From the UHGV virus genome UHGV-0071294: a stretch of 37,551 nt of DNA. One strand, 5' to 3'. This DNA comes from a virus. The position numbers and the translations under genes are program-made. Under the pieces are notes generated by a model. That model was not told the origin of the DNA, did no database searches, and worked only from the letters and a program-made list of their open reading frames with translations. Within the stretch, counting starts at the first letter, position 1; every line of letters starts with the position of its first letter. This document shows positions 20,797 to 22,402 of this stretch, one piece after another.

Positions 20797-22402
20797 TTTA
20801 TCGCATATTGCCGCCATGGCATTTAATGAACCGCTTTTACTGGAACCCGCCTATGCGCGGGTTTTCTTTTGCGCGCTGGGTAAAGAGATAGGGGCCGGCA
20901 GCCTTGCCGTTCCTCAGCAGGCTGTTCAGCTTGATGCTGATGGAATGCAACTGGCTGTGACTGACTATATGGTGGGCGGTCAGCGTCCGGCAAAGAGTTA
21001 CCAGGTGAAGAATGGCATCGCCATTCTGCCGGTGAGCGGCACGCTGGTGCATAAACTGGGTACCCTGCGGCCTTACTCCGGCATGACTGGCTATGACGGC
21101 CTGACGGCCCGCCTTCAGATGGCGGTGAATGATCCGGATGTGCGCGGCATTTTGCTGGATATCGACAGCCCGGGCGGTCAGGCTGCCGGGGCGTTTGACT
21201 GTGCTGACATGATTTACCGTCTGCGGGAACAGAAGCCCGTGTGGGCGCTGTGTAATGACATGGCCTGTTCAGCCGCCATGTTGCTGGCGGCAGCCTGTAC
21301 CCGTCGGCTGGTCACGCAGACGGCAAAAATTGGTTCGATTGGCGTGATGATGGCGCACGCCAGTTACGAGAAACAACTGGCACAGGAAGGGGTGGACATC
21401 ACGCTGATTTACTCCGGGCAGCACAAGGTTGACGGCAACAGTATTCAGGCATTGCCGGCAGGTGTGCGTGCAGATTTTCAGCGCCGTATTGATGAGGCCC
21501 GCCGGATGTTTGTCGACAAGGTGGCGCTTTATACGGGGCTGAGTTCAGAGGCGGTGATGAATACCGAGGCTGCCGTTTATGACGGTCAGGCAGGCATTGA
21601 TGCAGGTCTGGCTGATCAACTGATTAATGCTGCAGATGCCGTTGAAGTGATGGTTTCTGCACTGAATGACTCTGTTACGAAGGAGAATGCAATGACTGTT
21701 AAAAATCTCACCGTTGCTGAAGCGGTGGCCCAGGAAAATCAGCGCGTGATGGGGATCCTGAATTGTCAGGAGGCGAAAGGGCGCGAGCAACTGGCGCAAA
21801 TGCTGGCAGGTCAGCCTGGAATGACGGTTGAGCAGGCGAAAACGTTGCTGGCTGCTGCGCCGGTTGCCGGTACTGACAGCACGGGTGATCAGATTATGGC
21901 GCTGCCGGAAGCAAAAGGGCGTGAGCAACTGGCACAGATGCTGGCAGGTCAGCCGGGGATGACGGTGGCGCAGGCGAAAGCGTTTCTGGCGGCAGCCCCT
22001 GCTGCCGGTGCTGCAGGCACAGGCGATCAGATTATGGCGCTGCCGGAAGCAAAAGGGCGTGAACAACTCGCGCAGGCGCTGGCTGAACAGCCGGGAATGA
22101 CCGTTGACCAGGCCAAAACGTTACTGGCGGCGGCACCGGTTGCGGGGTCTGCAAGTGTCGGCGATCAGATTATGGCGCTGCCGGAGGCGAAAGGGCGTGA
22201 GCAACTTGCACAGGCACTGACAGAACAACCTGGAATGACGGTGGCGCAGGCGAAAACGCTGCTGGCAGCCGCGCCGACGGCATCGCAACCGTCACAGGAA
22301 ACACTTTTTGATCGCTTTATGGCACAGCATGTTGCCAGTGCGGTTTCCGGTGGCGGAACTGCCGGGCGCGGGGAGGAAGACCTGCTGATGAGTATGCCGT
22401 AA
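20786..22402 (+). CDS. Head maturation protease / scaffold (lambda C plus Nu3-like), 538 aa with an internal tandem repeat expansion
   Basis: N-terminus HIAAMAFNEPLLLEPAYARVFFCAL matches lambda C (HIASMAFNEPLMLEPAYARVFFCAL); S49-type region DIDSPGGQAAGAFDCADMI; C-terminal ILNCQEAKGREQLAQ...PGMTV motif as in lambda, but repeated. Confidence 0.9.
   Translation: MRRNLSHIAAMAFNEPLLLEPAYARVFFCALGKEIGAGSLAVPQQAVQLDADGMQLAVTDYMVGGQRPAKSYQVKNGIAILPVSGTLVHKLGTLRPYSGMTGYDGLTARLQMAVNDPDVRGILLDIDSPGGQAAGAFDCADMIYRLREQKPVWALCNDMACSAAMLLAAACTRRLVTQTAKIGSIGVMMAHASYEKQLAQEGVDITLIYSGQHKVDGNSIQALPAGVRADFQRRIDEARRMFVDKVALYTGLSSEAVMNTEAAVYDGQAGIDAGLADQLINAADAVEVMVSALNDSVTKENAMTVKNLTVAEAVAQENQRVMGILNCQEAKGREQLAQMLAGQPGMTVEQAKTLLAAAPVAGTDSTGDQIMALPEAKGREQLAQMLAGQPGMTVAQAKAFLAAAPAAGAAGTGDQIMALPEAKGREQLAQALAEQPGMTVDQAKTLLAAAPVAGSASVGDQIMALPEAKGREQLAQALTEQPGMTVAQAKTLLAAAPTASQPSQETLFDRFMAQHVASAVSGGGTAGRGEEDLLMSMP
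21770..22290 (+). repeat. In-frame tandem repeat, period 138 bp (46 aa), about 3.7 copies, within the scaffold part of the C gene
   Basis: Unit starts at 21770, 21908, 22046 and 22184; encoded unit is EAKGREQLAQ(M/A)LA(G/E)QPGMTV(E/A/D)QAK(T/A)(L/F)LAAAP..GDQIMALP. Confidence 0.85.

Follow-up and report, generated by a model that had tools for sequence, protein, structure and literature searches.

Tandem copies of a 46-residue module in the lambda C-type head protease/scaffold gene of an Escherichia coli prophage

The virus genome UHGV-0071294, a stretch of 37,551 nucleotides referred to here as the window, carries on its plus strand an open reading frame (ORF) of 1617 nt (positions 20786 to 22402) that encodes a protein of 538 amino acids with a tandem array of a 46-residue module. 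Judged by its sequence, the gene is a lambda C-type S49 head protease/scaffold gene. The Pfam model Peptidase_S49 (PF01343) matches residues 146 to 290 with E=2.8e-33 and 115.5 bits (cutoff, 24.9), and the PHROGs family phrog_53, "head maturation protease," is matched with E=2.6e-215. Alignment with SppA of Bacillus subtilis (3RST; E=7e-17) aligns the nucleophilic serine and leaves the position of the catalytic lysine ambiguous. The gene order of terminase, portal, S49 gene, decoration, major capsid protein, and FI is that of the lambda head module. A 100% identical gene occurs in E. coli CEA224S, where it is labelled "S49 family peptidase," and the late region of the window (12972 to 37551) is 99.5% identical to the CEA224S prophage (L002; NZ_CP166080.1, 1091211 to 1132827); the window is an E. 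coli prophage. The gene contains the following features.

20786 to 22402, plus strand: ORF of the lambda C / phage 21 gp5-type head maturation protease-scaffold, 538 amino acids plus stop codon (ORF list)
21221 to 21655, plus strand: S49 (SppA-like) peptidase domain, residues 146 to 290 (Pfam match and SppA alignment)
21680 to 21685, plus strand: Shine-Dalgarno sequence AAGGAG, 6 nt 5' of an internal in-frame ATG (read from the sequence)
21692 to 22402, plus strand: predicted nested in-frame scaffold ORF (Nu3 / phage 21 gp6 analogue), 236 amino acids, residues 303 to 538
21755 to 21892, plus strand: repeat unit 1, residues 324 to 369, ILNCQEAKGREQLAQMLAGQPGMTVEQAKTLLAAAP plus a 10-residue linker; 78% identical to phage 21 Tri1
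21893 to 22030, plus strand: repeat unit 2, residues 370 to 415; missing in the three-copy allele L042
22031 to 22168, plus strand: repeat unit 3, residues 416 to 461 (sequence comparison)
22169 to 22276, plus strand: repeat unit 4, 36-residue core only, residues 462 to 497; repeat homology stops after AAAP
22277 to 22399, plus strand: nonrepeated C-terminal tail (TASQPSQETLFDRFMAQH...LLMSMP), common to both nested products

Tandem Repeats Finder (TRF) reports the array at 21769 to 22276 with a period of 138 bp, 3.7 copies, 81% matches, and a score of 597, and a separate repeat search returned three 231-nt copies spaced by 138 and 138 nt and no inverted repeats. In the register of the protein, the array consists of four 46-residue units starting at residues 324, 370, 416, and 462 (nt 21755, 21893, 22031, and 22169), each with a conserved core of ∼36 residues followed by a linker of ∼10 residues. 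The count of 3.7 copies arises because the homology of the fourth unit stops at AAAP, at nt 22276. A hidden Markov model (HMM) of the module, with the motif IL.C.EA.GRE...GM(T/S)V..A...LAAAP, matches the protein four times with 71 to 80 bits each. The identity at a lag of 138 nt is 75%, compared to a maximum of 42% in 200 codon shuffles. The units of the window are 64 to 80% identical in nucleotides and 78 to 94% identical in protein, and dozens of independently finished E. coli chromosomes carry the 1617-nt gene at 98 to 100% identity. The array is neither a chance periodicity nor a misassembly. An earlier note made from the sequence had described an in-frame 138-bp repeat with about 3.7 copies of 46 residues in a 538-residue head protease/scaffold and had argued from the divergence of the copies against an assembly artefact. 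TRF and the ORF list bear out the repeat, the Pfam and PHROGs matches together with the lambda-like gene order uphold the gene assignment, and the divergence of the units and the recurrence of the gene in finished chromosomes agree with the third claim.

The array probably forms part of two proteins. The ATG at 21692 lies 21 codons before unit 1, at the position that corresponds in alignment to the annotated ribosome-binding site and start of phage 21 gene 6. The methionine of this start is invariant despite variable flanking sequence, and a Shine-Dalgarno motif (AGGAG, GGAGG, or GAGAGG) followed by the ATG has been retained in each of the nine upstream variants that the motif search matched. 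These variants all belong to the 46-residue-period and 495/498-residue clades, and phage 21-type loci were not matched. The predicted products are the full-length protease and a 236-residue Nu3-like scaffold translated from ATG 21692. With this internal start, the array would make up about three-quarters of the predicted scaffold.

The module itself is a widespread domain of phage S49 proteases and scaffolds. A search of the unit profile against 1.84 billion representative proteins retrieved 351 proteins at E<=0.001; among the best 150 of these, 124 have a single match and 26 have at least two. The usual place of the match is ∼80 residues from the C terminus of proteins of 400 to 550 residues or inside proteins of 100 to 250 residues. 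Across phages, the module is usually present in a single copy, close to the C terminus of S49 prohead proteases or within small, separate scaffold-like proteins, and its multiplication is seen in the clades of phage 21, of Gifsy, and of the window. Distant, independent duplications exist as well, for example in a 163-residue Bradyrhizobium protein with two units. One of the 26 proteins with several matches, P0225 with five, is an unrelated helix-turn-helix repeat protein. Pfam holds no model for the module, and the Pfam families T2SSK, Bac_DNA_binding, and DUF732, which resemble the array, all remain below their cutoffs and were taken to reflect a generic helix-turn-helix-like similarity.

Structure prediction points to an autonomous small three-helix bundle. 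The AlphaFold model of residues 303 to 359, built from 54 aligned sequences, has a mean predicted local distance difference test score (pLDDT) of 87 and a predicted template modelling score (pTM) of 0.67, with helices at residues 8 to 23, 32 to 39, and 46 to 55 of the modelled fragment. In the model of the whole 236-residue scaffold, the same helices recur between low-confidence linkers at a pLDDT of 60; this confidence is too low for a fold search, for which the single-module model was used. In BFVD, the same predicted fold is found in other phage S49 proteases, including one of a cyanophage, with template modelling (TM) scores of 0.74 to 0.84. No solved relative was found by sequence, as a PDB search with the scaffold part gave only spurious alanine-rich matches (bL12, E=0.07).

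The closest well-described systems place the gene in the lambda C/Nu3 family, in a subgroup with a repeated module that was first annotated in phage 21. Lambda has, like the window, an S49 protease gene (C, 439 residues) between B and D/E, with an in-frame nested scaffold gene (Nu3, 201 residues) of the kind predicted in the window, and lambda C shares ∼54% identity with the window protein over the N-terminal 370 residues. Lambda C (J02459.1) contains exactly one unit, at residues 364 to 399 (ILNCEEAHGREEQARVLAETPGMTVKTARRILAAAP), compared to four here; the earlier note had stated the single copy and quoted its sequence. An HMM built from the window units only finds it with E=8.5e-17. In contrast to the window, this single module follows a long nonrepeated Ser/Thr/Ala-rich segment, and the Nu3 start lies much further upstream (residue 239), within the end of the protease domain, whereas the predicted nested start of the window lies near unit 1.

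Phage 21 is more similar. Its record M81255.1 annotates three repeat regions in gene 6, the Nu3 homologue, as "Tri1 box," "Tri box," and "Tri3 box," each "function unknown; putative." They lie at approximately residues 324 to 358, 371 to 407, and 418 to 455 of phage 21 gp5 (501 residues) and coincide with the HMM unit matches. The boxes were reportedly published by Smith and Feiss in Gene in 1993. Genes 5 and 6 of phage 21 share with the window the gene position, the S49 protease, and the in-frame tandem module; a nested scaffold ORF begins ∼21 residues before the first unit, as is predicted for the window; the C-terminal tail (FEHFMANH...MLMAMP) resembles that of the window, and the proteins are 65 to 68% identical overall. 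The differences are in the array. Phage 21 has three units spaced by 50 and 47 residues, in contrast to four units with a strict 46-residue period in the window, and its units are old and mutually diverged (53 to 58% amino acid identity), whereas those of the window are 78 to 94% alike. A one-to-one orthology with Tri1 to Tri3 was rejected: of the four units, unit 1 alone pairs, with Tri1, whereas units 2 to 4 are 56 to 61% identical to Tri2 and Tri3 and yet 86 to 94% alike among themselves. The window array therefore expanded separately or was homogenised. The repeated module as such is known from phage 21, from which the window differs in its four units, the strict period, and this lack of one-to-one correspondence. 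The literature searched yielded no open-access work that treats the Tri boxes or maps the domains of Nu3.

Salmonella S49 peptidases of the window's clade (P0002 and P0005) likewise have tandem units, in their case three. These Gifsy-1-type gpC homologues differ from the window protein in unit number, in their linkers, and in a longer C-terminal extension; Gifsy-1 itself is 66% identical to the window protein, the three-unit count being taken from P0002 and P0005. More remote parallels are P22 gp8 and phi29 gp7, scaffolds with helix-loop-helix coat-binding domains (PMC3185693). They share with the predicted scaffold of the window a transient internal role and a small helical interaction domain. 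Unlike it, they are neither fused to a protease nor nested in one, and each has just one binding domain. PDB sequence and fold searches gave no match between either of them and the window scaffold, and membership among the P22-type scaffolding proteins was rejected for want of a homologous helix-turn-helix coat-binding domain. The staphylococcal protein A domains, the streptococcal GA modules, and the Ebh/Embp repeats offer a structural analogy only, as small three-helix bundles that are strung in tandem and serve for multivalent binding.

The number of units varies among close relatives, as counted by HMM matches. Among 80 related IMG/VR loci, the 46-residue-period clade includes proteins of 446 residues with two units (3 loci), 492 residues with three (3 loci), 535 to 541 residues with four (43 loci), and 584 residues with five (1 locus); the phage 21-type clade has three. 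A second IMG/VR scan with a five-unit query found no longer allele, and no one-unit allele was seen in the window's clade. Typing of the unit cores by nucleotide similarity gives each allele a string of unit types: A-C-D-E for the window, A-D-E, A-J-J-D-E, H-F, H-B-F, H-B-B-F, and H-B-B-B-F. According to these strings, internal units have been gained and lost in register, and the first and last units have been retained. In some phage 21-type alleles (P0040, P0041, P0044, and P0045), an in-frame deletion of ∼19 residues lies within unit 2 (GREQ----LAA), so partial units are tolerated too.

Some of these alleles derive from draft assemblies in which the internal units are identical, and finished genomes were therefore checked; they confirm three, four, and five units. 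Three units are present in one finished genome (PapRG-04-4) and five in nine (STEC005 and others), the latter in a 1755-nt gene whose units are 87 to 96% identical and hence resolvable; the remaining finished genomes checked have four. The lineage is present in 106 of 5,426 complete E. coli genomes, 98 of which match at least 80% of the query, and among the matches listed, all fully covered ones have the four-unit length. Four units are therefore the common allele and an ordinary variant, with two to five units in related prophages. The length variation anticipated in the earlier note is borne out by alleles of 446, 492, 538, and 584 residues with two, three, four, and five units; the four-copy state is a stable, common allele rather than an unusual expansion. 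That note was right about the repeat and incomplete about its context, having overlooked the phage 21 triplication, the nested Nu3-like ORF, and the copy-number polymorphism.

The major capsid protein is 100% identical across the two-, three-, and five-unit alleles L050, L047, and L040, and in finished genomes, one three-unit and two four-unit alleles share the same capsid protein accession. Length variation thus occurs without a compensating change of the shell protein. No description of the two-to-five-unit polymorphism was found in the searchable literature, whose coverage excludes the 1993 phage 21 paper. The natural allelic series, which runs from the single unit of lambda to the two to five units of one clade whose alleles of different unit number share an identical capsid protein, is a ready set of reagents for questions on the binding partner of the module and on scaffold valency.

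Most close homologues in the database (P0001 to P0120) are S49 peptidases labelled "partial" that lie at the ends of contigs, in many cases contigs of less than 3 kb, which suggests that short-read assemblies commonly break within the repeat. Copy numbers from draft genomes should for this reason not be trusted. Two prophages of this lineage with different unit numbers (five and four) reside in the single chromosome of E. coli STEC316 (NZ_CP041431.1, 4821372 to 4823126 and 2069622 to 2070529), and the same is true of STEC383, which gives scope for recombination between arrays.

The units are constrained at the protein level. Between the units of the window, the synonymous substitution rate (dS) is 0.7 to 1.5, near saturation, and the ratio of nonsynonymous to synonymous rates (dN/dS) is 0.12 to 0.45. 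Between the window and other four-unit alleles, dN/dS is 0.11 to 0.12 for the 36-residue unit cores and 0.10 for the protease part, compared to 0.21 to 0.24 for the linkers and 0.48 for the C-terminal tail. Purifying selection on the unit cores equals in strength that on the protease domain.

Lambda requires both its S49 viral protease, C, and its scaffold, Nu3 (PMC10695390); Nu3-Nu3, Nu3-E, Nu3-B, and C-Nu3 interactions have been reported (PMC3224144). No function assigned to the conserved C-terminal module of the lambda-family C/Nu3 scaffolds was found in the literature searched. The reading favored here, with a probability of about 0.6, is that the array provides multivalent interaction modules of the nested scaffold and the protease. 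Each unit would fold alone into a small three-helix bundle, strung like a bead on flexible Ala/Gly/Ser/Thr-rich tethers, and would bind the capsid protein, other units, or the portal. More units would give a longer and more multivalent scaffold. The units may also tether the protease inside the procapsid, into which the module would bring it because it is common to both nested products; after assembly, the protease would degrade both of them.

Several points weigh against this interpretation. Identical capsids across different unit numbers mean that valency either is not critical or is buffered, and they weaken the claim that copy number matters functionally. The comparison of dN/dS between alleles presumes positional orthology of the units, which unequal exchange can break. 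The two-unit alleles are known solely from draft-derived IMG/VR contigs, and the H lineage has internal units that are identical to one another, so that these counts could reflect assembly collapse. Expression of the nested product is itself a deduction from its predicted start. A further reading, in which copy number is an adaptive and rapidly switchable "valency dial," seems improbable. Unequal recombination would here generate the two- to five-unit alleles, which would alter the kinetics or fidelity of procapsid assembly or allow escape from a host defence or a capsid-hijacking satellite that targets the scaffold or protease by recognition, with the polymorphism kept by selection instead of just being tolerated.

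The strongest competitor, possible although clearly less probable than the interaction modules, treats the units as spacers or bulk that determine how long or voluminous the internal scaffold core is, or how far the tethered protease can reach, with the C-terminal tail (FDRFMAQH...LLMSMP) as the part that binds the capsid. By analogy, the tail could act like the C-terminal peptides through which the HK97 protease and encapsulin cargo are targeted. It is shared by both nested products and recognisable from lambda to the window's clade, and the toleration of two to five units with an identical capsid protein would suit a spacer. However, constraint on the unit cores is much tighter than on the tail (dN/dS of 0.11 versus 0.48), the module rather than the tail is what can be detected in distant phages, and a conserved fold would be needless for a pure spacer.

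Doubtful, although compatible with units that serve as interaction modules, is the suggestion that the units are protease-cleavage cassettes, in which the alanine-rich linkers (AAAP-VAG...) would be gpC-type sites and peptides of ∼46 residues would leave the procapsid. The enzyme is an SppA-like S49 peptidase, the linkers recur regularly, and lambda Nu3 is degraded and lost before packaging. On the other side, the linkers are less conserved than the cores, single-copy homologues do without repeated linkers, and no cleavage-site data for the S49 C/Nu3 family were found in the searched literature.

Extra units could also be functionally neutral and have arisen through replication slippage or unequal recombination in a part of the protein that tolerates such changes. 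Lambda functions with one unit, and the copy number is polymorphic without a compensating capsid change. Such neutrality is nevertheless unlikely: all unit cores keep their conserved residues, with a dN/dS of ∼0.11, although synonymous change between units is saturated; the allele with four copies is stably maintained across ∼100 genomes, in which the gene itself diverges by up to 12%; and a one-unit allele is unseen in the clade.

It is very improbable that the repeat pattern reflects misassembly, or a DNA or RNA element (a binding-site array or a structured RNA) rather than a protein repeat. Many homologues are "partial" where short-read assemblies break, and two CII-type pattern matches are marked in phage 21 gene 6. 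However, the gene recurs identical or nearly so in dozens of finished chromosomes with units divergent enough to be resolved, synonymous change is saturated although the encoded peptide is conserved, and the array has no TTGYN6TTGY match, Rfam match, or inverted repeat. These last three absences, of CII-type sites, of an Rfam family, and of inverted repeats within the array, were the grounds on which a DNA- or RNA-level element was rejected. In the window as a whole, the CII-type pattern is rarer than expected by chance, with 2 matches observed and 8.9 expected. The two matches to the CII-binding pattern (ttgynnnnnnttgy) in phage 21 gene 6 (L093, OL657228.1) lie at 1209 to 1222 and 1443 to 1456 on the minus strand. 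An antisense ORF of 173 residues at 21545 to 22066 on the minus strand passes through the repeat and is itself periodic; it was dismissed, as it most probably results from the repeat and nothing was found to support it as a gene.

The genes adjoining the protease/scaffold gene are the following.

19225 to 20796, plus strand: portal gene (lambda B type), overlapping the start of the protease gene
22441 to 22776, plus strand: head decoration gene (lambda D type)
22846 to 23874, plus strand: major capsid protein gene (lambda E type), 342 amino acids

By identity to the CEA224S prophage, positions 16600 to 37551 of the window join a lambda-type head module to a P2-type contractile tail module, the latter comprising baseplate V/W/J/I, sheath, tube, tail protein X, and late control D. 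Positions 1 to 12970 form an early/regulatory mosaic relative to that prophage, in which blocks of 93 to 98% identity alternate with unrelated DNA. The CEA224S prophage adjoins tRNA-Ser and hyaA, and the window contains no match to its KwaB-like (Kiwa) gene or to some of the neighbors of that gene. The 69-nt gap between the decoration and major capsid protein genes contains a perfect 11-bp G+C-rich hairpin at 22798 to 22822 on the plus strand (AAACGGGTCGC GAT GCGGCCCGTTT), followed by GTGTTTCTGA. This terminator-like or RNA-stability element might set the ratio of D to E expression.

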